Positions 1 through 59,357 of a DNA stretch of 59,357 nt are shown here, in pieces. The notes under the pieces are model-generated. The model worked only from the letters and a program-made list of their open reading frames with translations, made no database searches and was not told the origin of the DNA. Position 1 is the first letter of the stretch. Each line of letters begins with the position of its first letter. The stretch comes from a virus (Duplodnaviria; Caudoviricetes): positions 1 through 59,357 of the IMG/VR virus record IMGVR_UViG_3300033148_005636; one strand, given 5' to 3'. The position numbers and the translations under genes were made by a program.

Positions 1-114
1 CCTCGGCATCGCGAATATCGCCCACCACAAAGCAGGCGAAGCGGTTCGATTTCAGCATTGTAGCGCATTGCGCGACGATCTCGCGATAGGCGATCAAGAA
101 CGTCTCGAAGTCTT
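1..114. repeat. Terminal direct repeat, left copy (circular assembly overlap)
   Basis: Identical to 59244-59357; the methyltransferase reading frame runs through the junction. Confidence 0.97.
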
Positions 115-574
115 CGGCCTGCGACAAGTCGCACGGGTCATCGGAGTAGACTTCCAAGTCGTAGTAGGGCGGGCAGGAGAAAATGAGGTCATATTCGCCG
201 GGGACAAGTTGCGCTATAGCGCGGCTATCGCCGACGACCCATTTAGGCCGTTGCCCGCCGGACGCATCGGCCTCCGTCCCGAGCATTTCGTCCGCCTGCT
301 CTTCATTTGCCTTGATCTGGTGCGCCGATAAGTCAACGCCGACATAGCGCAGCCCGACCTTCGCGGCAACTATCCCCCTCACGGAGCCGCCCGCAAACGG
401 GTCAAGCACGGCCCCTCCTTCCGGGCAAAACCAGCGGTATATGAGTTCGCATAGTACAGGGTCGAAGACGGACGTGCCCGTGGCGGGCACGGTGACGCCC
501 TCGGGCATCGGCCCGCCATCATAGGCCATCCCGGCCTCGCCAAACCGTTCGGGGCCTGCTATCTCAGGATTCAC
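1..574 (-). CDS. DNA amino-methyltransferase catalytic part, 5' portion (continues across the origin to 58993)
   Basis: GGAGG-7nt-GTG start at 574. Translation contains GTSVFDPVLCELIYRWF, motif I LDPFAGGSVRG and motif IV FSCPPYYDLE. In frame with ORF 58993..59340; 274 aa in total. Confidence 0.85.
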   Translation of the reverse strand, partial: MNPEIAGPERFGEAGMAYDGGPMPEGVTVPATGTSVFDPVLCELIYRWFCPEGGAVLDPFAGGSVRGIVAAKVGLRYVGVDLSAHQIKANEEQADEMLGTEADASGGQRPKWVVGDSRAIAQLVPGEYDLIFSCPPYYDLEVYSDDPCDLSQAEDFETFLIAYREIVAQCATMLKSNRFACFVVGDIRDAE

Positions 575-794
575 TTGCCCGCCTCCCGGTCGTGCAGAGC
601 GCCTCCTAAGTTTCTCATTCAATTCTCCCGCCCCCCCCCCGAAGCGTATGCCCTTGCGTCAACCTTTTTCATTGCCGCGCCCCCTCGCGACGATCAAGTG
701 GCATCGGGCCTCCTCCCGGTGCAATGTTCACTGGACGCCCCCCCCGCTTGCGATAGAAGTTCAGGCCCGGCTCCGTAACCTGTTCGGCCTGCAT
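571..794 (-). other. Chain of three coupled mini-ORFs with poly-G tracts inside the split methyltransferase locus
   Basis: Mini-ORFs 794-669 (41 aa), 672-619 (17 aa) and 618-571 (15 aa), joined by TAATG, ATGA, TGAATG and GTGA junctions. Minus-strand G tracts at 804-810 (G7), 738-745 (G8), 680-684 (G5) and 631-640 (G10). Confidence 0.7.
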
Positions 795-1426
795 TAGCAG
801 GTGCCCCCCCTCCCCAATTCCGACCGTATACCTAGCGCGAGCCATGCGCGCTTGCGTTGTTGCCAGTAACCCTGCCGGGCGTCCAACACGGAGAAGGGGG
901 GAATCCCAAAGCGCTCTGCGAGTGCGCCCGTCGGTTTACTTAGCGCATCGCCATCAAGTAGGGCTCCTTGCTGCTCCGCCAACTCCGCCAACCGCGCCTC
1001 GTGTTCCGCTTCCGACCATCCTGTGCCCACAAGGTCGCCGAAGTCGGAGGCCAGCTCTTGCAGGAGGGTGTGCAGGCGCGCTTCGTCGTCCTCGGCGATG
1101 CGACTGACCTCGTTATCCGCTACCATCAGCAGCCGCTCTTCCGCCTCCCCGCCCTCGAACACGTACACGGCCAGCCGGTCCATCCCGAGTTCGCACGCCG
1201 CCTGCACGACTCCGTGCCCCGCGAGAATCGTGCCGTCGGGCCGGATGACGACGTTCTTGTACTGGCCGAGTTCCCGCAGGCTCGCCTTGATGTGGTCTAT
1301 CTGGTCCGCCGGGTGCTTGCGGTAGTTGTCGGGATGCGGCGTCAGTTCGTGCGGGTCCACATGCTGCAGCTTGAGCTTGTCTGCGAGGTGCGTCAGTGCC
1401 GCGGCGTCCGCGCTGTCATCCGCCAT
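794..1426 (-). CDS. ParB/Srx N-terminal domain fused to the N-terminal segment of the methyltransferase
   Basis: LTPHPDNYRKH...IKASLRELG...ILAGHG...ADNE ParB-like motifs, then FGIPPFSVLDARQGYWQQRKRAW, typical of this phage MTase family. RBS AAGGAGG. Confidence 0.85.
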   Translation of the reverse strand: MADDSADAAALTHLADKLKLQHVDPHELTPHPDNYRKHPADQIDHIKASLRELGQYKNVVIRPDGTILAGHGVVQAACELGMDRLAVYVFEGGEAEERLLMVADNEVSRIAEDDEARLHTLLQELASDFGDLVGTGWSEAEHEARLAELAEQQGALLDGDALSKPTGALAERFGIPPFSVLDARQGYWQQRKRAWLALGIRSELGRGGTC

Positions 1427-1451
1427 CGCCATGTCCCTCCTTCGCCAGTTG

Positions 1452-2614: not shown

Positions 2615-2921
2615 TTTGCCCTCCAAACCGCCCGAACTTCAACCAGGGCAGGTACTGCGGCATGTACCACGGCGACTCCAGAGTCTGCCGCATCGCATTC
2701 GCCCGCTCACCGGGCTCACCACGAATCTGGTAGGCCCGGTGCCGCCAGTTTCTAAGCGGGTATTCTACAACGTCTTGCCAGGCACCACAGCGTGTGCATC
2801 GCAACTGTCGCCTCGTGTAGCTCCGAGAACATCGAAACCGGAAGCTTTGCAAGTAATCAGGATAGGCAGGATAGACGCGCCACCTGTGCCCAAGCAACCG
2901 GCACAACAGTCTGCGAAGCAT
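2607..2921 (-). CDS. Hypothetical protein (DUF1660-like CxxxGHxW start)
   Basis: MLRRLLCRLLGHRW...CTRCG; TGATG coupling with the upstream gene. Confidence 0.55.
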   Translation of the reverse strand: MLRRLLCRLLGHRWRVYPAYPDYLQSFRFRCSRSYTRRQLRCTRCGAWQDVVEYPLRNWRHRAYQIRGEPGERANAMRQTLESPWYMPQYLPWLKFGRFGGQND

Positions 2922-3235
2922 CACTCTCGCCCCCCCGCCCCGTCCGCCCTCTGCGCTTGCGATGATAACCACTCGCCAAGGCGCCGCGTCGTGAGTGCGT
3001 CGATGCACATCGTATCCGGCCACAAACTACCTGTGGTCAGCAACCGCCAGACCAGCCGCAGACGCTCGCCCGGACTGGGATGTCGCCGAGGGTGGCCGGA
3101 CACGTACAGCAGGCCCCCGAATTGTGGCTCATCGCTCACCTGAAAGCGCAAGTCGCAGCACTCGGACGCGCAATCGCAAGTCACGATGGCGCGCGGTGTG
3201 CCGACCCCATCATCGTCGCACAGGTAGAAGCTCAT
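2921..3235 (-). CDS. Hypothetical protein
   Basis: GGAGGG RBS, Cys-rich N-terminus, fits the gene tiling. Confidence 0.55.
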   Translation of the reverse strand: MSFYLCDDDGVGTPRAIVTCDCASECCDLRFQVSDEPQFGGLLYVSGHPRRHPSPGERLRLVWRLLTTGSLWPDTMCIDALTTRRLGEWLSSQAQRADGAGGRE

Positions 3236-15670: not shown

Positions 15671-15811
15671 TTAGCGCCACAGTCTCTGCACTCCCCGCCC
15701 GATGTAGCGGTTGGCTATTCGGGCGGCTGTCCGGCCCGGCCCGCGCGATAGGGCATTCAGCCAACCCAGCAGGCGGGCGAACGCGTAGAGCAGTCTGCGC
15801 AGTCTGTTCAT
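15671..15811 (-). CDS. Small basic hypothetical protein
   Basis: MNRLRRLLYAFARLLG...; ATGA overlap and GAGGAG RBS. Confidence 0.55.
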   Translation of the reverse strand: MNRLRRLLYAFARLLGWLNALSRGPGRTAARIANRYIGRGVQRLWR

Positions 15812-16614
15812 CCTTTCTCCTCCTCGCGTGCGAGCCGATGCGCCTCGGTATCCTGTGCGTTCGGCGGCGCCTCGTCCGCCTGAAACATGGGCTGCTGCTT
15901 CGGCGCTACAATCTCGGCGGGCTCCCATAGCCGCCCCTGCGCTATCTCCTGCTCCAACCGCCGCGCCGCGAGTTCGCAGTACTCCTCGCTGATCTCGATG
16001 CCGACGCCCCGCCGCCCGAGGCGATAAGCGGCCACGAGCGTGGTGCCGGAACCGAGGAAGGGGTCGAACACTTGACCATCGGGTTGACAAGACAGCTCAC
16101 ACAGTTCTGACATGAGACCGATTGGCTTCTGTGTCGGATGATAACGCTCATTCGATGGCACAACGGGCCATTCGCTGAAGTTATGGCGGCAGTGTCCGCC
16201 ATAGTACGCCCCTGCCCGCTTACCCCATACTGCGAGCTCTACTGACGGTAATGGTAACAATTCCCCATTCATTACCGTGGGATTGGGCTTATGCCATATC
16301 CAGTACCGCGTCGAATAGCCCTGATCTTCGAGACCGTTCACGAGGGGAGAAAGCTGTGTCTCGTGACAGAAACTTACGACGGTTCCCGCAACGCACCGTG
16401 CGCACTCCAGTAGGACTGTAGTTGGGTCCCCACAAGTGTCCCACTCGCCATAGTGCAACCGCCGAAGTCCGTTATCCCGTTGGCTGAGGAGATAGGGAAT
16501 GTCCGTCAGGCACAGGTCGAACTCCTCGCCCAGCGCGGGCATTACCTCCAAGCAGTCCCCGTGGTAGATGCGCAGGCCGTGCGTTTCCGACACCCAGTAG
16601 GGCCTAATCGCCAT
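15808..16614 (-). CDS. DNA N4/N6 methyltransferase (beta class)
   Basis: IYHGDCLEVM, motif IV variant TDIPY, HPTQKP, motif I FDPFLGSGTT, and GIEISEEYC. Confidence 0.92.
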   Translation of the reverse strand: MAIRPYWVSETHGLRIYHGDCLEVMPALGEEFDLCLTDIPYLLSQRDNGLRRLHYGEWDTCGDPTTVLLECARCVAGTVVSFCHETQLSPLVNGLEDQGYSTRYWIWHKPNPTVMNGELLPLPSVELAVWGKRAGAYYGGHCRHNFSEWPVVPSNERYHPTQKPIGLMSELCELSCQPDGQVFDPFLGSGTTLVAAYRLGRRGVGIEISEEYCELAARRLEQEIAQGRLWEPAEIVAPKQQPMFQADEAPPNAQDTEAHRLAREEEKG

Positions 16615-17941
16615 CCCCCACGCCCTCCTTCGGGATGAGCCGCCGCGCCTTCGTCTCGGGCGCGTTCGGGAATGGGTCGTCCTCCTCGTCCCACTCCACG
16701 GGCGGCTCGGCATCCGGCGGCGTCTCGTCCTGCGGCCCGTCGTCCGCCTCCGGCTCCTCGCTGAACTCCGCGTCGGTGGCCTCCCCGTCGCCCTCCAGCG
16801 AGGCAATCTGTCGCACCAGGTCCTCCGGGTCGGCCTCCGCGACGAAGCTGTCAATCGCGGCGTCAGTCCAGCCCGCTTCCGTCGCGACCGCCCGGAACCG
16901 CTCCTCCATGAAGTCGCCAATGCTGGGCTCGCCGCCCGCGGCCAGATCGTGTTCGCCGACGAATGCGTCCGTGTACTCCGCCTCGGTCTCCTCGATTACG
17001 CCATCCAGCATCTTGAGGTGCGACGCCAGTTCGCGTTGCGCCTCCACGCTCTCCCTCAACGCCCGCGCCTTCGCCTCGCCGAGCGCCGGGAGTTCACGCC
17101 ACGGCACCGCAGGCTCAAAGTGCACGACGCCGAGATGCTGCATCCCCATCGGCGTCCTCAGCCTCGGGAACTCCAGCACGAGCTTGAGGGGCAGCCCCGC
17201 GATGACGCCCCCGGCCATGTCGCGGATTTCCTCCCACGACCGCATCAGCCCTGCTGAACTGTACCAGCTCGGCGTGCTGAAGAATGCCCGCGGCGACTCG
17301 TCCTCCACGAACGGGAGCAGCAGCGGCACGACACAGTGGATGCCGCACAGCTTCCGCCCCTCCTCCACGACCTTCTCGCTGGGCCACGCGCCGTAGGCGT
17401 CGCGGTACTCCACGCGCCCCGCGTGGTCCCAGCGCCCTTGAGCGAACGCGCAGGTATGGGGGTCGCACGGGACCTGAACCTTCTCCAGCGGCACGGGATA
17501 GTGGTGCGGTGGCGGCCCCTGTCGCCACCGCGTCCGCGTCGCGGTGCCGACGAAGTATGCTGGGCCAGCGTTCTCCCAGCCGCCCGCCGGCGGGTAGGGA
17601 AGCCCCTGCTGCTCGCAGGTCTCGGGGCTCTTCTGCATCCACCTCCCACAGCGGCACACGTTGCGGTTGTTCGAGCCCCACGCCGCCAGTTCCGTGAAGA
17701 CCGCTCGCTCCAGTTCCTGATACGGGCTGATGACCGGGCACCACTGCGGCTTGTCCGTCCCCGTGATTTCGCACAGCCGGGCCTGGAGGTCCGGGTGCAC
17801 GACCCAGACTTCCTTGGCCCGGTCGTAATAGCGAATCGTGATGTAATCCATAGCCCGCGGCGGGCCGGTCTTCGACTTCCGCTCTCCGATGCTGACCTTC
17901 CACGTCGGCAGCACCGGCCCTCTGCGTCCAGGCAGGGCCAT
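16604..17941 (-). CDS. Gp3-like (recombination directionality factor-like) protein with acidic tail
   Basis: KVSIGER...PRAMDYI N-terminus, Cys clusters, STPSWYS...AGLPLKL; located near the exonuclease. Confidence 0.6.
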   Translation of the reverse strand: MALPGRRGPVLPTWKVSIGERKSKTGPPRAMDYITIRYYDRAKEVWVVHPDLQARLCEITGTDKPQWCPVISPYQELERAVFTELAAWGSNNRNVCRCGRWMQKSPETCEQQGLPYPPAGGWENAGPAYFVGTATRTRWRQGPPPHHYPVPLEKVQVPCDPHTCAFAQGRWDHAGRVEYRDAYGAWPSEKVVEEGRKLCGIHCVVPLLLPFVEDESPRAFFSTPSWYSSAGLMRSWEEIRDMAGGVIAGLPLKLVLEFPRLRTPMGMQHLGVVHFEPAVPWRELPALGEAKARALRESVEAQRELASHLKMLDGVIEETEAEYTDAFVGEHDLAAGGEPSIGDFMEERFRAVATEAGWTDAAIDSFVAEADPEDLVRQIASLEGDGEATDAEFSEEPEADDGPQDETPPDAEPPVEWDEEDDPFPNAPETKARRLIPKEGVGDGD

Positions 17942-22643: not shown

Positions 22644-22672
22644 ATTCTATCACGGCGCGCAATCGATGTCAA
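22644..22672 (-). promoter_or_regulatory. Sigma70 early promoter (duplicate of 22133-22161)
   Basis: TTGACA-17-TAGAAT; same upstream GGCAATCGCTC(G/T)CAACGC. Confidence 0.88.
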
Positions 22673-22749
22673 GCGTTGAGAGCGATTGCCGGCAGATTTT
22701 TTTTCGAGGGCGGGCAGGGGCGCGCGGGGGGGGGCGGGAGGAAACAGCG

Positions 22750-22882
22750 GAGGCGCCCGCCGTGCTGAGCGGACGCCTCGAATGCTGCTTGCCCTTAGCC
22801 ATCGCAGTCGATGGGGCTCAGCCTGCATCCTTGCCTTTCGGCTCTGCGCCGCGATGACATAGGCGGGAGGGCACAGCGCCCG
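22750..22882 (-). ncRNA. Candidate structured small RNA
   Basis: Follows a consensus promoter with no RBS-led ORF. Hairpins GGCGGG/CCCGCC, GCC-GAAA-GGC, CCATCG/CGATGG nested in GCCC/GGGC and GGATGC/GCATTC, and GAGGCGTCCGC/GCGGGCGCCTC. Confidence 0.5.
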
Positions 22883-22887
22883 CCGGC

Positions 22888-22915
22888 ATTATAGCAGGGC
22901 AGGCCGTCCTGTCAA
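22888..22915 (-). promoter_or_regulatory. Sigma70 promoter
   Basis: TTGACA-16-TATAAT with extended TG. Confidence 0.8.
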
Positions 22916-22967
22916 CAGCCAGCCTGCGCCACTCCACGCGCGCGGCACGTGCAGCGGTCGCGGAACG

Positions 22968-32432: not shown

Positions 32433-35031
32433 CTATCTCCGCCCACTCGCGCTCCAGAATGGCGTCAAACTCGGCGAGGTAGCGCTCCCACGTCCTGCGC
32501 TGGATCAGCCGCAATGCGCTCAGCGCAATGCGTTCGCGCTCGCGCGGATTGTCGAGCAGGTAGCCCACGGCCTCCACGATGGCATTGCTATCGCGCGGCG
32601 GCACGAACATCACGTCCCTGCCGTGCGTCGCGTAATCCTCCACGCCCGTCGGCGTCGTCACCACCGGCGTTCCGCACGCCATCGCCTCGCGCACAGTGCG
32701 CGGCGAGCCCTCGATGATGCTGGGCAGCACGAACACGGTCGCCTGCGAGTACAGTTGCGCCACCTCGTGCTCATCATACGTCTGGTGATGGCGCACGGGG
32801 CACGGCAACGAAGGCGGCGGGTAGCCAAGCCAGTCCACGCTGAGCGTCGGATAGCGCCGGGCAAGCTCCTCCAGCGCCGGAAGCAGGTACTCGTGGCCGC
32901 CATACCATGTTGGGACGCTCTTCGTGATGACGAACAAGCGCGGGGCCTGTTCGCCGAGGCGGCCCGACGGCATGTCGGCCCTCGGCGAGAACGTAATCGT
33001 GTCGATGCCCGGCGTCAGCCTGCCGACGATGTTCATGCCGTACTTCTCGGCGAACTCCGACATGTGCTCGGCGATGATAATGTCGCGGAAGCCGTCGAGT
33101 TCAAAGGCCTGCCGCCACTCGTCGTAATACGCTTCGCCGCGCACCCACTCCGGCTCGTCGGATTGCACGAGGCCGAGTCTGAGCCCGCAACTGATCTCCC
33201 GCGCCTTCGGTCGCGTCGTCACGAACGTCGCCATCGCTATATCGTAATGCGGGCGCGTCCGGCCCCAGGGCACCACCGAGAACTCGTCCCACATATCGGC
33301 GTTTTCGCCGGTCATCAGCGCGATCTCCACGAACCATCCGCGCTGCTGCAGGTGTTGCGCAATGCACCGGATGGCCTTCTCGCCGCCACTGCGCCCGCCT
33401 CTACCGCAGACGATGCAGAACGTGCGCTGGCCGCGTTCCGGCTTGCGCTCCAACTCCATCGGCACGTGACGCGACGGCATACGTATCGGTTGCCGCTGCT
33501 GCCCGCAGTCCTGGAGCACGAGCCGGTACAGCTCCTCATAGCGCGCCGCCTGCGCCTGAAGTGTCCAGCGTTCCCACGGAAGTTCGCCTCCGCGTTGCCC
33601 GACCTGCCCAATCATCGCCGCCGCGACGAGTTCGGCGTCGCGTTCCGACAGAAGTATCGCGTCGTGCGGCACTACCTGCGAGGTGCCGCCCACGTCCGTC
33701 GCCACAATCGGCGTCCGGCACCGCGCGGCTTCGCGCAATGCCAGCGGCGTCGCCTCGTTTGTGCTCGTGCTTGCCACCACGTCCGCCGCGCACATCAGGC
33801 GTATCACGCGCTCCAGCGGCACGTTGTTCTCAGTGCGCACGTCGATTCCCGCGGCCTGCAACTCGGCAACGCGCTCCTGATAGTCATCCCACTCGCGGTG
33901 CCACTCGGCGGGGCCGATGGCGTAGAACGCCGCGCCGGGCACCCGTTGCGCCACGCGCTCGACCGCATCGAGGTAGAGCCGCCAGCCCTTCACCTCCTCG
34001 GCCTTCGTGACGCTCAGGAACACCGGCTCCACGGCTGACAGGCCCTCCGCGACACGCGCCTCGTGCCTCGGCATCCGCGCGGCGTCGATGATGTTCCAGT
34101 CGAGGCCCGATGCAATCTCGATCTGTTCCGGCGCGTAGAAGTCGGCCTCGTGCGGCGCGATGTGATACGGCACCACGCTCCATGCGTCGGTGCGGTAGTA
34201 GCGGATACCGTAGGTGTGCGATGTGACCACGAGCCGCCCCGACTTCTCCAGCGCCTCCAGCACGCCCCACTCGTGGCCCCAATAGTGCAGGTTGACAATG
34301 TCGGCCCGCGCCGCCGCCGCCGGAAAGACCTGCCGCAGTTGCGCTTCGCCGCCGACGACCGTGACGCGTACCCCGGCGGCCTCCAGTTCATCGGCCAGAG
34401 GCCCGCCGCGTATCGCCAGCACCTCTGTCGCGAACTCGTCGCGGTCCACGCTGAGACAGAGGTTGCGCACGGTCCGCTGCGCACCCTGCCGCGTCAGATC
34501 GCCCACGACGCGCAGGATGCGTGTCTGCTGCTCGCGCGCGGCGACGGCTTCCGGCTCGTCAGCACCCCACCGGAGCACGCGCGTCACCGCCGCGCAATCG
34601 GCCAGTATGTCGGCATTGCCGCGCTGGCCCCGGTTGCGGCCTGCGTACATCACCGCCTGTAGCAATGCCCGCCGCACCACAACGCCCGCAATGTAGAGGC
34701 CATAGCGCACCGCTTCGGCGAACCTCGCGGGCGCATACCCCCCCACCTCGCGCGCAATCCAGCACACGCCCACGTCCGGTCGATTGTCAAGGTGCGCAAC
34801 AACCGCCTCCGGGGCCACGCCGCAGTCGTCATCGACGAGCGCGACGTAATCGCTTGCCGTGCCGCTCAGGATGCGGTCGCGCCAGACCAGCGCGTCGCAG
34901 TCCCGCGCGGGCGGCACTATCGCGAGGCGCGGCGGCAGACCGTGCAGCAGCGGCAACTGCGGCGGCATATCCGGCGTCGCGCCCGCGCGTCCGCGCCGCC
35001 TGCGCGTCGCCACCAGCCTTGTGTCTGTCAT
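32404..35031 (-). CDS. Multi-domain glycosyltransferase (GT2-like remnant plus two GT4 domains)
   Basis: YVALVDDD; EATPLALREAARCRTPIVATDVGG; EGSPRTVREAMACGTPVV. Confidence 0.9.
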   Translation of the reverse strand: MTDTRLVATRRRRGRAGATPDMPPQLPLLHGLPPRLAIVPPARDCDALVWRDRILSGTASDYVALVDDDCGVAPEAVVAHLDNRPDVGVCWIAREVGGYAPARFAEAVRYGLYIAGVVVRRALLQAVMYAGRNRGQRGNADILADCAAVTRVLRWGADEPEAVAAREQQTRILRVVGDLTRQGAQRTVRNLCLSVDRDEFATEVLAIRGGPLADELEAAGVRVTVVGGEAQLRQVFPAAAARADIVNLHYWGHEWGVLEALEKSGRLVVTSHTYGIRYYRTDAWSVVPYHIAPHEADFYAPEQIEIASGLDWNIIDAARMPRHEARVAEGLSAVEPVFLSVTKAEEVKGWRLYLDAVERVAQRVPGAAFYAIGPAEWHREWDDYQERVAELQAAGIDVRTENNVPLERVIRLMCAADVVASTSTNEATPLALREAARCRTPIVATDVGGTSQVVPHDAILLSERDAELVAAAMIGQVGQRGGELPWERWTLQAQAARYEELYRLVLQDCGQQRQPIRMPSRHVPMELERKPERGQRTFCIVCGRGGRSGGEKAIRCIAQHLQQRGWFVEIALMTGENADMWDEFSVVPWGRTRPHYDIAMATFVTTRPKAREISCGLRLGLVQSDEPEWVRGEAYYDEWRQAFELDGFRDIIIAEHMSEFAEKYGMNIVGRLTPGIDTITFSPRADMPSGRLGEQAPRLFVITKSVPTWYGGHEYLLPALEELARRYPTLSVDWLGYPPPSLPCPVRHHQTYDEHEVAQLYSQATVFVLPSIIEGSPRTVREAMACGTPVVTTPTGVEDYATHGRDVMFVPPRDSNAIVEAVGYLLDNPRERERIALSALRLIQRRTWERYLAEFDAILEREWAEIDANTMVAVE

Positions 35032-54858: not shown

Positions 54859-57300
54859 TCACCAGATACGCTGCGACGTGTCGGCCTTGGGAACGTCATA
54901 TCGTGTCCGCCCGCCCGCTTCGCCGTAGCGCTCTATCTGTTCGCGTTCGGCCCGCGTCATCCGGTCGGCCCGCGTCTCGCCGAAACCGAGCACCGGGGCG
55001 CGCTCGACGAGGTGCGGCACCGCGTTCATGTGCGCGGTCTCCGACAACAACCTGAACGCCCCGCTCAGCGCGTCAACCTGGTCGTCATGCACCCCCTCCG
55101 CCGGGAACGCGCACACCTCGTCCAGGAAGTCCGCGATCCAGGCCCCCTCCACGAGCGCGACGTGTCCCAGCGCCACCTGCCCGGCCACGCCGCGCGCCCG
55201 CACCTCCTTGCTCCCCGTGGCGGGAACCGCGTGCACCTCGAACTCGGGCAGGACGTGCCGCGACAGATAGCTGATATAGCCCTTGCCTGCCGACCCCGGC
55301 TCGCGCTCGACGTAGATGCCGACCTCGCGGCCATCCTCCTCGGCGGTCCGCCGCAGCAGCGCCTCCACGCCCGCCGGAGCCTCCCGACAGCCCTTCACGT
55401 CCAGCACATAGTAGAGCCCGTCCGGCGTCCGGGCCAGCTTCAGCCCCCGCGTCCAGTCCGCCGCGCCCTCGGTGGCCGCGAGGTCCCAGTACCGCACGAC
55501 CTGCGCTCGCACCCTCTGCGGCAACGGGATGCCCGCGACAATCCGAAAGTCCTCGCGCCGGAACATCCCGCCTTCCGGCGTTACATCCCAGTCGCCCCAT
55601 CTTAGCTGCTGCCGCGTCACCGGGTCAAGCTGCTGAAGCGATTCTTCGTACTCTTCGGCGTCCAGCGACGGATTGTCTTCCAGTCGCGACGGCACAAAGA
55701 TGCGCACCGGCCTGCCTTCCGCGTCGTAGCTCGGCGCGCCCTCGATGAACCGCCGCCGCACCCACTCGTGCCCAGGACCGCCGGGGTTGCTCGCGGCCCG
55801 CATTCGCAGCGGCACCTCACTCCCCTCCAGCCTCCGCAAGCGCGAGAACAAGTACTTGTAGTCGCGCTCCTTAAAGTCTGTGAGTTCGTCGAATGCGATG
55901 AACTGGAACGCAGACGACTGGTAGCGGAAGCGGTCATTGGCGGCGTCCAGATAGCCAAAGCTTAGCCGTGCGCCCGACGGGAACCACCACGTCCTGGTGT
56001 CGTCATCCCACTTCGCATCGGTCGGCCCGAGCCACTCGTGCGCGCGGTCCATCAGCCCCTCGGCCATGCTCAGTTGTGCGTACGTCCGGCGCAGCAGCAG
56101 CGCGCTGTAGCCCGGCACATCCACGTACTGCAGCGCGGCCATCAGCAGTGCCTCGGAGTTATGCGTGGGCACCATGTTCTCGCTGCAGAGAAACTGCCCG
56201 GATGCCGCCTCCACCTGAATGCACTTGACCGGCTCGCTCTCGATCGGGCGCACGTCCACGATGTAACGGCGGTCATGCGTCCCTCGGAAGCCATCGCGCT
56301 TCTGCCGATCCGCCTTGCGAGGTAGCCGGAACACCGGCAGCGCCGTCATGAACTTGATCCGGTACTTCGGCCCGCAGTCCTTGCCGTTCAGCTTCGCGCG
56401 TCCCGTGCCGATAGCTGCTTTGATGCCGAGGCTGACAATCAACTCATGGGCGTCGTCGGCAAGCCTCCTATTGGTCGTGTAGAACTCACACTGGCCCCGT
56501 GTGTCTACCGTGCCGTCGGTGTCCATAAGACCCTGCAGCAGCGCCAGCCGCTGTTCTACACTGGCCCGCAGATAGGCGCTGGGGACATGCTTGTTGCCGT
56601 TGAGACCCAACGCGCGCAGTTGCGTGATCAGACCATGGACGCAATAACCGTAGTCATCACACTTATGCTTGGTCACTTCGTAACCCAGGCCGCGCAACTG
56701 CTCGACGATCTCCTCGTCGGCGGTGGTGATCTCACTGCTCGTTGCCGTGCCGTCGCCCAGCCACACGCCCAGTGCGTAGGGGTCGATGGGTAGATCGGCT
56801 TCGGGACATTGCAGCGCCCCACCGACGGTCACGGAATGGTTCACGCGCTCGCCGACAAGCAGCGAAGCTGCGATCTCCGCGGTCGTACGCACATCACCTG
56901 TCGGCGGAGGCAGACACTGATACTCGCGCTCGCGGTTGGCTTGGATGAGGTCGGGCCGCTTGCCGGTGCTTCGGCTTGCCCGCCGCGCGCGGCGATGCTC
57001 GCGCCACTCTGGCGTCCGATGAACCGCAGCGATCCGCTCCTTGGCGGTCATTGTGTGCCAGCCGTGCTCACCATCGGCGATGATGTTGCTGCCGTCGGAG
57101 AAGCAAACCTCACAGCATGGACGATTGTGCATGATTTCAGAGACCGCTACGACCCGCGTTGGCCTGCCAGCCTCGTCGAATATCACGTCGCCCGGCATGA
57201 TCGCGCCGATGGTCGTCCAGCCGTGCAGACTAGGCACCGGCGTACTGAGGCTCAGCGCCTTGCCTCCGCCTGCGCTGCCGCCGAACATGACCTCCAGCAC
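54859..57300 (-). CDS. terL: Terminase large subunit with intein (true start probably further upstream)
   Basis: Walker A GGSAGGGK|S, Walker B FIAFDE, ASNPGG, nuclease YWDLA and HDDQVDA. Confidence 0.95.
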   Translation of the reverse strand: MLEVMFGGSAGGGKALSLSTPVPSLHGWTTIGAIMPGDVIFDEAGRPTRVVAVSEIMHNRPCCEVCFSDGSNIIADGEHGWHTMTAKERIAAVHRTPEWREHRRARRASRSTGKRPDLIQANREREYQCLPPPTGDVRTTAEIAASLLVGERVNHSVTVGGALQCPEADLPIDPYALGVWLGDGTATSSEITTADEEIVEQLRGLGYEVTKHKCDDYGYCVHGLITQLRALGLNGNKHVPSAYLRASVEQRLALLQGLMDTDGTVDTRGQCEFYTTNRRLADDAHELIVSLGIKAAIGTGRAKLNGKDCGPKYRIKFMTALPVFRLPRKADRQKRDGFRGTHDRRYIVDVRPIESEPVKCIQVEAASGQFLCSENMVPTHNSEALLMAALQYVDVPGYSALLLRRTYAQLSMAEGLMDRAHEWLGPTDAKWDDDTRTWWFPSGARLSFGYLDAANDRFRYQSSAFQFIAFDELTDFKERDYKYLFSRLRRLEGSEVPLRMRAASNPGGPGHEWVRRRFIEGAPSYDAEGRPVRIFVPSRLEDNPSLDAEEYEESLQQLDPVTRQQLRWGDWDVTPEGGMFRREDFRIVAGIPLPQRVRAQVVRYWDLAATEGAADWTRGLKLARTPDGLYYVLDVKGCREAPAGVEALLRRTAEEDGREVGIYVEREPGSAGKGYISYLSRHVLPEFEVHAVPATGSKEVRARGVAGQVALGHVALVEGAWIADFLDEVCAFPAEGVHDDQVDALSGAFRLLSETAHMNAVPHLVERAPVLGFGETRADRMTRAEREQIERYGEAGGRTRYDVPKADTSQRIW
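56158..57258 (-). mobile_element. Class 3 intein (367 aa) with LAGLIDADG homing endonuclease
   Basis: Ala1 start (ALSLST), block B EHGW, block F VKCIQV, block G PTHN|S; endonuclease motifs ALGVWLGDG and LLQGLMDTDG. Confidence 0.93.
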
Positions 57301-57355
57301 ATCGTCGAGCAGCAGGAATGCCTGCTGCTTCGGGTGCGGGCTGTGCGGGATGTAG

Positions 57356-57883
57356 CTAGTCAGCCTCGGAACTATCAGCCGCCGCAGCTTCCGGTCCTTC
57401 CACCACTCCCGCCTGCCGGAGGATGTTGACGATCTCTTGCGTGCGATCTGCGCCGTTGAGGCCGTCGTGTTTCACCTCCACGGGGCCGCCGCCTGCGCCG
57501 CTGACCTCATGCCGCTGCTTACGCATCCCCCACGTGTCGGGCCTGCGCATCTTCAGGAACGCCTCCGCCGCCCGCCAGTCACCTTCGACCTCCGCCGTCG
57601 CCGCCCGCTGGATAATCGCGAGGTTGCGGGCGATAGCCTGCGCCGCTCGCGCGCGTACCGTGTGCGAGAATCGCGCGTAGACGCGCTTCTCTTCGGGCAC
57701 GTCGTCGAGGTTGCCGCCCGCCGCGTCTAACGCCTCTTCGCCCCACTTCAGCCAGTCATAGGCCGTACGCCGCCCAATGCCGCACAGGTCGCAGGCGTCC
57801 TCGAAATACAGCCCAGCGGCCATGTAGCCCGCGAACTGTTCCGTGAGTTCAGGCGTGCATTTTGTCGGGCGTCCGGCGGGCAT
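57356..57883 (-). CDS. terS: Terminase small subunit
   Basis: GRPTKCTPE, HTH ACDLCGIGRRTAYDW, DWRAA...L, EVSGAGGGPV. Confidence 0.85.
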   Translation of the reverse strand: MPAGRPTKCTPELTEQFAGYMAAGLYFEDACDLCGIGRRTAYDWLKWGEEALDAAGGNLDDVPEEKRVYARFSHTVRARAAQAIARNLAIIQRAATAEVEGDWRAAEAFLKMRRPDTWGMRKQRHEVSGAGGGPVEVKHDGLNGADRTQEIVNILRQAGVVEGPEAAAADSSEAD

Positions 57884-58188: not shown

Positions 58189-58996
58189 CGTCATTGCCCT
58201 CCCTGCGCAGGTACAGCTTCCCGTCCTTCGCACGGCGGTCTATCAGTTCCCAGCCCATGAGCCGGGCCGCATCGCGGACGCTGATGTAGTGCGTCCCGTC
58301 GATGAACAGGGGCTCGGCTGTATTTTCGTAGCCGGGTAGGGCGACGACGAGCCGGGCCGCCCCAAGCCTGTCGCCGGTCGGACCTCCATCGCGCAGGATT
58401 TGCAGCGTCAGTTCCGTGGCTTCGTAGTGCATCGGGTCGAGGTACGCCCGCGAGAAGTGCCCGCCCCAGGCAAAGCCCCAACGGTTGGCGTACCTCGCGA
58501 GGCGGCGGCAACTGCCCGGCACTTCGTACGGCTCGCAGTGAAAGTTCCATCGGGCGGCCCGGTACTCCTTGCCGGAGTTGTTGCAGAGGTGGTGAACGTT
58601 GAGGTCGATGGCTATCCCCCACGAGTGCGGACTCGGCGTCCGGCTGCCACGGGTCGTGCGGCAGTTGTAGGTGCCGCCGTAGTCGTCCAGATCGACGAGG
58701 TGCTCTTCGCCCGCTTTCTGCACGTCGTGGAGCCAGCCGATCATGGCGTCGGCGATCTCCCGATGGACCGTCGCCCGCCCCACAATCGGCAGGCGCGCTG
58801 TGACCAGACTGCCGCCGTCGCACCTCCGCCCGAACCAGTAGCGCACGTGCCCGGCGTCAATCGCGCCCGTCCGTCGCAAGGGCTTGATTACTCCGTCCCT
58901 GGTAGGCATAGGCCACGCCTCCCTGTCTGCTGCCATTATACCCGCCGCGCGCGTCACGTCAACTCTTCGCAGGCGCGGTTTGTACCGCATGGTCAC
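58178..58996 (-). CDS. M15-family peptidoglycan peptidase (endolysin) with C-terminal copper-amine-oxidase-N-like domain
   Basis: YNCR...SPHSWGIAIDLN...WGG...DPMHYE; C-terminal FIDGTHYISVRDAA. Confidence 0.85.
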   Translation of the reverse strand: MTMRYKPRLRRVDVTRAAGIMAADREAWPMPTRDGVIKPLRRTGAIDAGHVRYWFGRRCDGGSLVTARLPIVGRATVHREIADAMIGWLHDVQKAGEEHLVDLDDYGGTYNCRTTRGSRTPSPHSWGIAIDLNVHHLCNNSGKEYRAARWNFHCEPYEVPGSCRRLARYANRWGFAWGGHFSRAYLDPMHYEATELTLQILRDGGPTGDRLGAARLVVALPGYENTAEPLFIDGTHYISVRDAARLMGWELIDRRAKDGKLYLRREGNDDGA

Positions 58997-59357
58997 GCGT
59001 CGGACAAGTACTCACCGAAGGGCACCGCTGCACTGAAATCCCGCGGTATCCGTTTCGGGTCGCCCTTGAAGAAGACGAGCACGTTCTGATGTGTCTTGCC
59101 CAATTTGCGGTAGTTCGCAAATTGGCGGCCCACGCGTACGGGCAGCGAGCCCACCGCTGTGACCATTACCGCGTCGTTGTACAGTCGCATCCCGGCATCC
59201 TCAAATGCTCGAATGGTCTCCGTGGGCAGGCCACGGTAAAAGCCCTCGGCATCGCGAATATCGCCCACCACAAAGCAGGCGAAGCGGTTCGATTTCAGCA
59301 TTGTAGCGCATTGCGCGACGATCTCGCGATAGGCGATCAAGAACGTCTCGAAGTCTT
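58993..59357 (-). CDS. DNA methyltransferase catalytic part, 3' portion (continuation from 574-1)
   Basis: RFACFVVGDIRD...RKLGKTHQNVLVFFKGDP. Confidence 0.88.
   Translation of the reverse strand, partial: DFETFLIAYREIVAQCATMLKSNRFACFVVGDIRDAEGFYRGLPTETIRAFEDAGMRLYNDAVMVTAVGSLPVRVGRQFANYRKLGKTHQNVLVFFKGDPKRIPRDFSAAVPFGEYLSDA
59244..59357. repeat. Terminal direct repeat, right copy
   Basis: Identical to 1-114. Confidence 0.97.

Follow-up and report, generated by a model that had tools for sequence, protein, structure and literature searches.

Poly-G tracts at the junction of overlapping ParB-like and DNA methyltransferase genes in a tailed phage: a candidate mutational switch

Long runs of guanine lie where a ParB-like gene meets a DNA methyltransferase (methylase) gene in IMG/VR virus record IMGVR_UViG_3300033148_005636 (Duplodnaviria; Caudoviricetes). 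The window analysed here is the entire 59,357-base assembly, and the coordinates given cover this full stretch; all features of the junction are on the minus strand. The region probably comprises two overlapping minus-strand genes, the ParB-like gene (1432/1426..669) and a PF01555 methylase gene (ATG 672 to 58995-58993), and in the assembled consensus each of them is thrown out of frame at a G run. In this study, we describe the two genes and their tracts, compare them with related loci (numbered Lnnn) and homologous proteins (numbered Pnnnn), and weigh the reading that the tracts are hypermutable and form a mutational on/off switch.

The ParB-like gene as assembled occupies 794..1432 and encodes 212 or 210 amino acids (aa), ending in ELGRGGTC at a premature stop, TAA 796-794, which lies in frame 0 immediately 3' of a G4-A-G7 tract. 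The candidate start codons are ATG 1432 and ATG 1426, with a Shine-Dalgarno (SD) sequence, GGAGGG, at 1440-1435; ATG 1426 is the more likely of the two. The open reading frame (ORF) corresponds to the 210-aa protein P0121 and is matched by the ParB-like PHROG families phrog_620 (E 4.8e-30) and phrog_15396 (E 1.3e-29). Pfam domain PF02195 is present in many homologues, and the N part encoded in the window has no Pfam match at E <= 0.01.

After the G7 tract the true frame is frame 2, as indicated by homologue matches. The translation there has AEQVTEPGLNFYRK followed by PGGGPMPLDR and matches P0016 (E 4e-7), P0120, P0076, P0102 and P0074 in blastp searches. This tail (HLLMQAEQVTEPGLNFYRKRGGRPVNIAPGGGPMPLDRREGARQ, 669..803) ends at a natural stop, TGA 671-669. 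The whole frame-2 ORF extends over 845..669, and ATG 794-792, in a TAATG overlap with the premature stop, opens 41 codons of it; the 41-aa mini-ORF of the original prediction is read here as the tail of the ParB-like gene. When read through, the ParB-like sequence aligns with the stand-alone ParB protein P0218 (247 aa) as far as the C-terminal PLDR module and end of that protein. The product is best explained as a folded N-terminal domain followed by a Gly/Pro/Arg-rich modular tail.

The methylase gene starts at ATG 672-670 and, as assembled, runs for 17 codons (619..672) to TGA 621-619. Its body lies in frame 0 (1..640), which is open from 658, and carries motif I DPFAGGS and motif IV SCPPYY, both invariant in methylase alignment A1. 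PF01555 matches positions 2-640 with 36.1 bits against a cut-off of 26.7, and the PHROG matches are phrog_498 'DNA methyltransferase' (E 3e-45) and phrog_12517. Since the contig ends repeat 114 bases, the gene continues at 59243..58993, beyond window position 1; wrap-around translation of this 3' end reaches the stop at 58995-58993, and phrog_498 matches 58996-59355 with E 2e-38. Annotation of the linear record truncates the gene, since it spans the contig ends. The catalytic part has 4550 relatives in an exhaustive profile search, stand-alone methylases among them. Motif I comes before motif IV, which is permuted in comparison with the beta-class structure 2zie, and the PDB matches are split, query residues 134-210 falling on 2zie residues 24-101 and query residues 68-106 on 9c3u residues 198-236; by its motif order the enzyme appears to be a circular permutant of the beta-class layout. 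The predicted product is a PF01555 N6/N4 catalytic domain behind a modular, probably disordered leader.

Three tracts lie within this junction. The first, G7 (804-810), belongs to the G4-A-G7 (804..815) at the conserved ELGRGG motif and is one base below the in-phase G8. The second, G8 (738..745), is inside the ParB-like tail at KRGGRP and is in phase, with homologous modules in frame 2 on both sides. The third, G10 (631..640), occupies methylase codons 12-15 and is one base below the in-phase G11; frame 1 before it and frame 0, the true frame, after it are colinear with P0244, P0094 and P0107. The frame path across the region is 0->2->1->0. ATG 672-670, in an ATGA overlap with TGA 671-669, begins a stretch of 17 codons in frame 1, ATG 618-616 adjoins TGA 621-619 and opens 15 codons, and GTG 574-572 overlaps TGA 573-571 (GTGA). 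These stops and starts, the mini-ORFs of 41, 17 and 15 codons, the tracts G8, G5 and G10 and the open stretch of frame 0 are all present on the minus strand as originally predicted, as is the ribosome-binding site of GTG 574, GGGAGG at 587-582, which sits 7 nucleotides (nt) upstream. The 17-aa ORF consists of the 14 initial methylase codons and three further codons in the wrong frame. The 15-codon ORF (MRNLGGALHDREAGK, frame 1, 571..618) is out of the true frame, frame 0, and is not a coding module.

The original prediction described a single methyltransferase gene split into coupled pieces, which one added G at each of three tracts (G7, G5 and G10) would join into one protein. The frame path that it gave is supported by the homologue matches, and one extra base at each of the three sites would indeed yield a single frame. 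The evidence from relatives and from the gene boundary itself points to two genes. With an X placed at the break, the methylase ORF from ATG 672 aligns over residues 1-298 with residues 1-300 of the stand-alone methylase P0244 (324 aa) at 56% identity (E 4e-114); P0244 opens with MSKKYGKTFGSGSPGEM, and its counterpart in the window is MKKVDARAYASGGG/AGEL. On the ParB side, a search for proteins of near length found 953 shorter proteins, and many of the 120 listed are ParB-like proteins that stand alone and finish behind these same modules. In P0218, 11 residues follow VTEPGLNHYRNRNNAAPGGSPRPLDR; past PLDR, P0135 and P0209 have 6-10 residues before their end, and frame 2 of the window has 7. 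The best isolate-phage match, Microcystis phage Mae-JY30 (PP438422.1), has a ParB-like coding sequence of 244 aa and a methylase coding sequence of 294 aa that overlap by 8 nt, its methylase being 60% identical to that of the window. An SD sequence plus an ATG overlapping the upstream stop is also found in L001 and L121. In the window, the sequence and the position at the gene boundary suggest that GAGGGGG (680..686), which includes the G5 at 684-680, is the SD of the methylase, 7 nt 5' of ATG 672; the G5 was therefore rejected as a slippage site. The change from frame 2 to frame 1 is very probably an ordinary ATGA gene boundary, and under the two-gene reading only two one-base deficits, at G7 and G10, need to be accounted for instead of three. 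Fused proteins also occur: the search with the N part found 455 longer ParB-like/PF01555 fusions, whose junctions are assembled from short recurring modules.

The neat coupling of stops and starts had been put forward as an argument against sequencing error. The 26 long ORFs of this genome contain 667 off-frame stops, and at 369 of these (55%) an ATG, GTG or TTG overlaps or adjoins the stop, so that four out of four would arise by chance with a probability of about 0.09. With the coupling at this background level, the chain of mini-ORFs was rejected as a designed relay.

The tracts themselves are clustered far beyond chance. Three of the eight G/C runs of at least 7 in the genome fall within 631-810 (180 nt). 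GGG-GGG encodes only 2 of 118 Gly-Gly pairs in the 26 long ORFs, while the 190 nt of the junction hold three GGG-GGG(-GGG) sites. A G-quadruplex at the junction was rejected, the G runs being 40-60 nt apart.

Related loci were used to follow the tracts across lineages. A total of 194 loci with a ParB end and a methylase start gave 139 distinct junctions, in which the frames were followed by per-fragment blastp and three-frame views. Of the 17 junctions with a G run of at least 7, 16 were interrupted, as against 8 of the 122 without such a run (114 intact; Fisher p 3e-14, 139 junctions). Most homologues are uninterrupted, which does not extend to those that carry long G runs. The 17 poly-G lineages have 26 long G/C runs in 6.2 kb of junction and 4 in 50.4 kb of flanks, a comparison that is biased by the choice of lineages and is still many-fold after subtraction of one run per lineage. 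Breaks were found in 9 of 125 junctions, and broken domains were rare (2 of 134 for the C-domain, 0-1 of 130 for the N-domain).

Tract length and phase differ between lineages. L010 and L011 are identical across 3296 nt except for G8 in the former and G9 in the latter at ELGRGG. The in-phase length at this motif is G8, or G9 if the next codon begins with G; the phase is -1 in the window and L160, 0 in L001 and L010, and +1 in L142, L011, L157 and L144, the relatives having G8 when in phase and G9 or G10 when out of phase. At DIL-RGGGY, L160, L178 and L211 have an in-phase tract and L217 an out-of-phase one. Overall, about 10 tracts are in phase, 13 are out of phase and 6 are unclear in three-frame views. 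G8 and G9 tracts are retained in junctions of 42-45% G+C (L001, L010), and the L010 locus as a whole has 37% G+C. DNA patterns over three tracts, the G10 in the window and the one at ELGRGG in L010 and in L001, recovered no further near-identical copies in the collections searched.

We consider, with modest confidence, that these are real hypermutable poly-G tracts on two overlapping genes, acting as a mutational on/off switch. Slipped-strand mispairing during phage DNA replication would add or remove one G per tract. G7 in place of G8 would truncate the ParB-like protein just past its core domain, with loss of the tail, and G10 in place of G11, in methylase codons 12-15, would halt translation after 17 codons. 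The methylase would then be off, or limited to a product of internal restart. Candidate restarts in the true frame lie within 572..622, namely TTG 622-620, 8 nt past G10, and GTG 574-572 with its SD GGGAGG; homologues with short leaders exist (P0253, P0310), and leaky expression from TTG 622 or GTG 574 is possible. One-base slips would restore either gene, the third tract, G8, being already in phase. Contingency tracts classically sit this close to the start of a gene. One feature of contingency loci is found here, namely simple-sequence repeats inside ORFs, at G7 and G10, whose change in length shifts the frame; length differences between close genomes are seen among relatives (L010 G8 and L011 G9; homologous tracts at -1, 0 or +1). 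By inference, tract lengths would vary within the population of this phage, and switching would be reversible and frequent. That the switch might serve bet-hedging over self-methylation is speculation. The slippage part of the original prediction is supported by the tract variation in relatives; its single gene broken at three places, the relay of mini-ORFs and the specificity modules are not supported.

Several points weigh against this reading. The tract lengths of the window are those of an assembled consensus only. "Interrupted" partly mirrors the ordinary two-gene layout and is not the same as an off state. L010 and L011 are the only near-identical pair that differs in tract length, and L154 equals L011 and is maybe the same record; an all-against-all indel comparison of the loci yielded this pair alone, L128 being an error-prone record. 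Phase calls and the phase tally were made by eye, and some metagenome contigs name a coverage of only 2-7x, which leaves room for assembly errors among the phases. In protein-guided scans that covered viral, metagenome and genome collections, no relative exceeded about 64% protein identity. On the C-domain tree (FastTree only) the poly-G trait is scattered, changing 12 times against a shuffled mean of 17.2. Finally, a junction under weak constraint would equally gather slippage mutations, so adaptiveness is not implied.

The segment between the tracts had also been proposed to carry target-recognition modules. The junction is made of shuffled short Gly/Pro/Arg-rich modules, such as APGGSPRPLDR, ARGDGRGR, FGQDLMRGEH and MAMHNDPMQRK (P0123-P0240, P0242-P0367). 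These occur in three ways: as tails of ParB-only proteins, as methylase leaders and as fusion linkers. In an AlphaFold2 model of P0244 built with 35 sequences, the 77-residue leader block has a predicted local distance difference test (pLDDT) score of 35-53, and the catalytic core is mostly above 90. A target-recognition domain would be folded and linked to specificity; here the modules also tail proteins that consist of ParB alone, and the leader of P0244 has low pLDDT. The segment is read as a low-confidence and probably disordered tail or leader, not a recognisable target-recognition domain; a role in DNA contact may still exist.

Other repeats were observed at related junctions. (GA)n repeats reading ERERERE lie in the ParB/methylase junction of L143 (about 200-260), L146 (about 560-600) and L009 (about 2300), with frame changes at or near them; L143 is the nearest neighbour of the window. 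They are a second kind of simple repeat at the same junction, taking the place of poly-G in these lineages. In L142 (465-545), a cassette, QLLMESEQVTTQNLNYYRNQ, between G9 and G8 is shifted by one frame, and the frame that flanks it stays open throughout; the two tract changes compensate each other and exchange the peptide read between the tracts. In the Mae-JY30 locus (L240, 280-410), C6, G6, C9, C6, C9 and T7 runs lie within 130 nt of non-coding sequence upstream of the ParB-like gene.

A more ambitious form of the switch is possible, though we hold it to be doubtful, namely that the junction is a selected multi-tract combinatorial switch common to a loose group of uncultured phages. Three or more poly-G tracts at module joints, or (GA)n tracts in some lineages, would then slip independently; the methylase would be set on, low or off, and modules of the ParB-like tail would be chosen, including an off-frame cassette as in L142. 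A single burst would mix self-methylation states and so hedge between two kinds of host, one restricting DNA that lacks methylation and the other DNA that carries it.

It is somewhat unlikely that the breaks are assembly or sequencing miscalls, with true lengths of G8 and G11, both genes intact, and an undercall of one base at each tract. Both deficits are indeed -1, and the G runs where they fall are among the three longest in the region; apart from the breaks, the two genes are intact and well conserved, and the 114-bp end overlap is unlike the usual k-mer overlaps and so does not betray the platform. Against this, three other tracts are in phase, namely the G8 that separates the two breaks and the G7 tracts at 34738 and 42554 in long ORFs. 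Elsewhere the assembly is clean, with 29 G/C runs of 5-7 inside 27 long ORFs that are intact. The relatives come from many independent assemblies, and more than half of their judgeable tracts are out of phase, a per-tract rate that is hard to credit to consensus error.

Fixed decay is improbable. It would mean that the ParB-like tail and the methylase are being lost and that the slips are not reversed at a useful rate, leaving the phage with a truncated ParB-like protein and with either no methylase or one made by restart. The consensus, in which both genes are broken, accords with this, as do the excess of broken junctions over broken domains and the presence of a second methyltransferase gene in the genome (15811-16995, phrog_67). 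However, about 300 methylase codons and the ParB tail have no further stops or lesions and have preserved their homology, and diverged lineages, some with junctions of only 42-45% G+C, retain long unbroken G runs at homologous sites, where decay should have interrupted them.

Programmed recoding of fixed out-of-phase DNA, by -1 frameshifting on G_GGG_GGC and within G10 or by transcriptional slippage, is highly improbable: both needed shifts are -1, the G7 formally fits the heptamer X_XXY_YYZ in the zero frame, and a modest hairpin lies 3' of G10 (z -2.08; 6 of 200 shuffles fold as well), but there is no stimulatory structure 3' of G7 (z +0.50), an Rfam search of 1-2000 gave no match, and the phase of the homologous tract is 0, +1 or -1 by lineage where a programmed site would keep one, so that of the marks of a programmed -1 frameshift the heptamer is present while structure and conserved phase are missing.

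The hypermutable on/off switch has counterparts in known systems. In phasevarions, bacterial methylase genes are toggled by a repeat tract that lies towards their 5' end. Those genes are Type III or Type I mod or hsdS genes on bacterial chromosomes, whereas the methylase of the window is an orphan phage PF01555 enzyme with no restriction partner seen. Hypermutable poly-G tracts have reportedly been described in Campylobacter Fletchervirus phages by Sorensen and colleagues in 2021. Two sources also cite poly-G tracts in other phage genes (PMC4791379; bioRxiv 10.1101/2025.10.21.683753), and one of them reports contingency loci in T2 and T4 (bioRxiv 10.1101/2025.10.21.683753). The likeness of the Fletchervirus and T2/T4 loci to the present one is that homopolymer slippage gives reversible frameshift variants in a phage population; they differ in that their tracts are in receptor-binding or other genes, while the three tracts of the window lie at a ParB-like/methylase junction and form a candidate switch.

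The closest parallel is in Bordetella phages, for which a poly-G tract of variable length in a methylase ORF is described with a proposal that frameshifting controls expression (PMC4791379; bioRxiv 10.1101/2025.10.21.683753). The bpm gene of phage BPP-1 (NC_005357) has a G8 at codon 195. The description of the variable tract is said to go back to Liu and colleagues in 2004. Both cases have a G run within a phage DNA methylase ORF, variable in Bordetella; in contrast to the gene in the window, bpm encodes a stand-alone beta-class enzyme (DPPY first) with a single tract beside motif I and no ParB-like neighbour. The 35 records matched by the methylase of the window include no Bordetella phage, and bpm is not a detectable relative.

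Fusions of a ParB fold with an N6_N4 methylase are reported to be enriched in phages and prophages (PMC12704722). These fusions and Mae-JY30 agree with the window in both domains and in the modular junction; unlike the window, most fusions are uninterrupted and have a junction without long G runs. The titles and abstracts of the literature searched include none on poly-G tracts at a ParB-like/methylase junction.

For the window alone the finding is modest, since this kind of switch is already known and switching here is only proposed. Its wider interest lies in the comparison: many uncultured phages have long G runs at corresponding ParB-like/methylase joints, about half of the runs being out of phase, which makes these joints candidate contingency loci. 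Phage orphan methylases shield DNA from restriction and yet may expose it to methylation-dependent nucleases. If real, a switch on such a methylase would produce epigenetically mixed phage populations and affect host range. For annotation, a "split ParB-methyltransferase" at G runs should be taken neither as a simple pseudogene nor as a single fused gene.

The remaining features of the genome are those of a tailed phage. The G+C content of the window is 66%, and the minus strand carries almost all genes, including those for terminase, portal, major head protein, tape measure, a DnaB-like helicase and a RuvC-like resolvase. The first 114 bases recur exactly at the end (1-114 = 59244-59357); this repeat is an assembly overlap, and the genome is circular or permuted. 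The second methyltransferase gene (15811-16995, minus strand) matches phrog_67 with E 1.7e-49, with no long G run noted in it, and given this gene the phage may methylate more than one motif.

Two further homopolymer sites and one gene were noted. On the plus strand at 22697-22734, T8 and G9 runs 20 nt apart lie inside the one gap of any size without coding sequence (22647-22967) in the array of minus-strand genes, which could be a promoter or terminator region with a variable tract of its own. A G7 at 2930-2936 on the minus strand is at the end of ORF 2921-3235, just 5' of the GTG/ATG of the next ORF (GAGTGATG), and looks like a ribosome-binding stretch, not a frame breaker. The large terminase ORF (54862-57471, minus strand) encodes 870 aa; its PHROG matches fall in separate stretches, and it may contain an insertion, either an intein or an extra domain.

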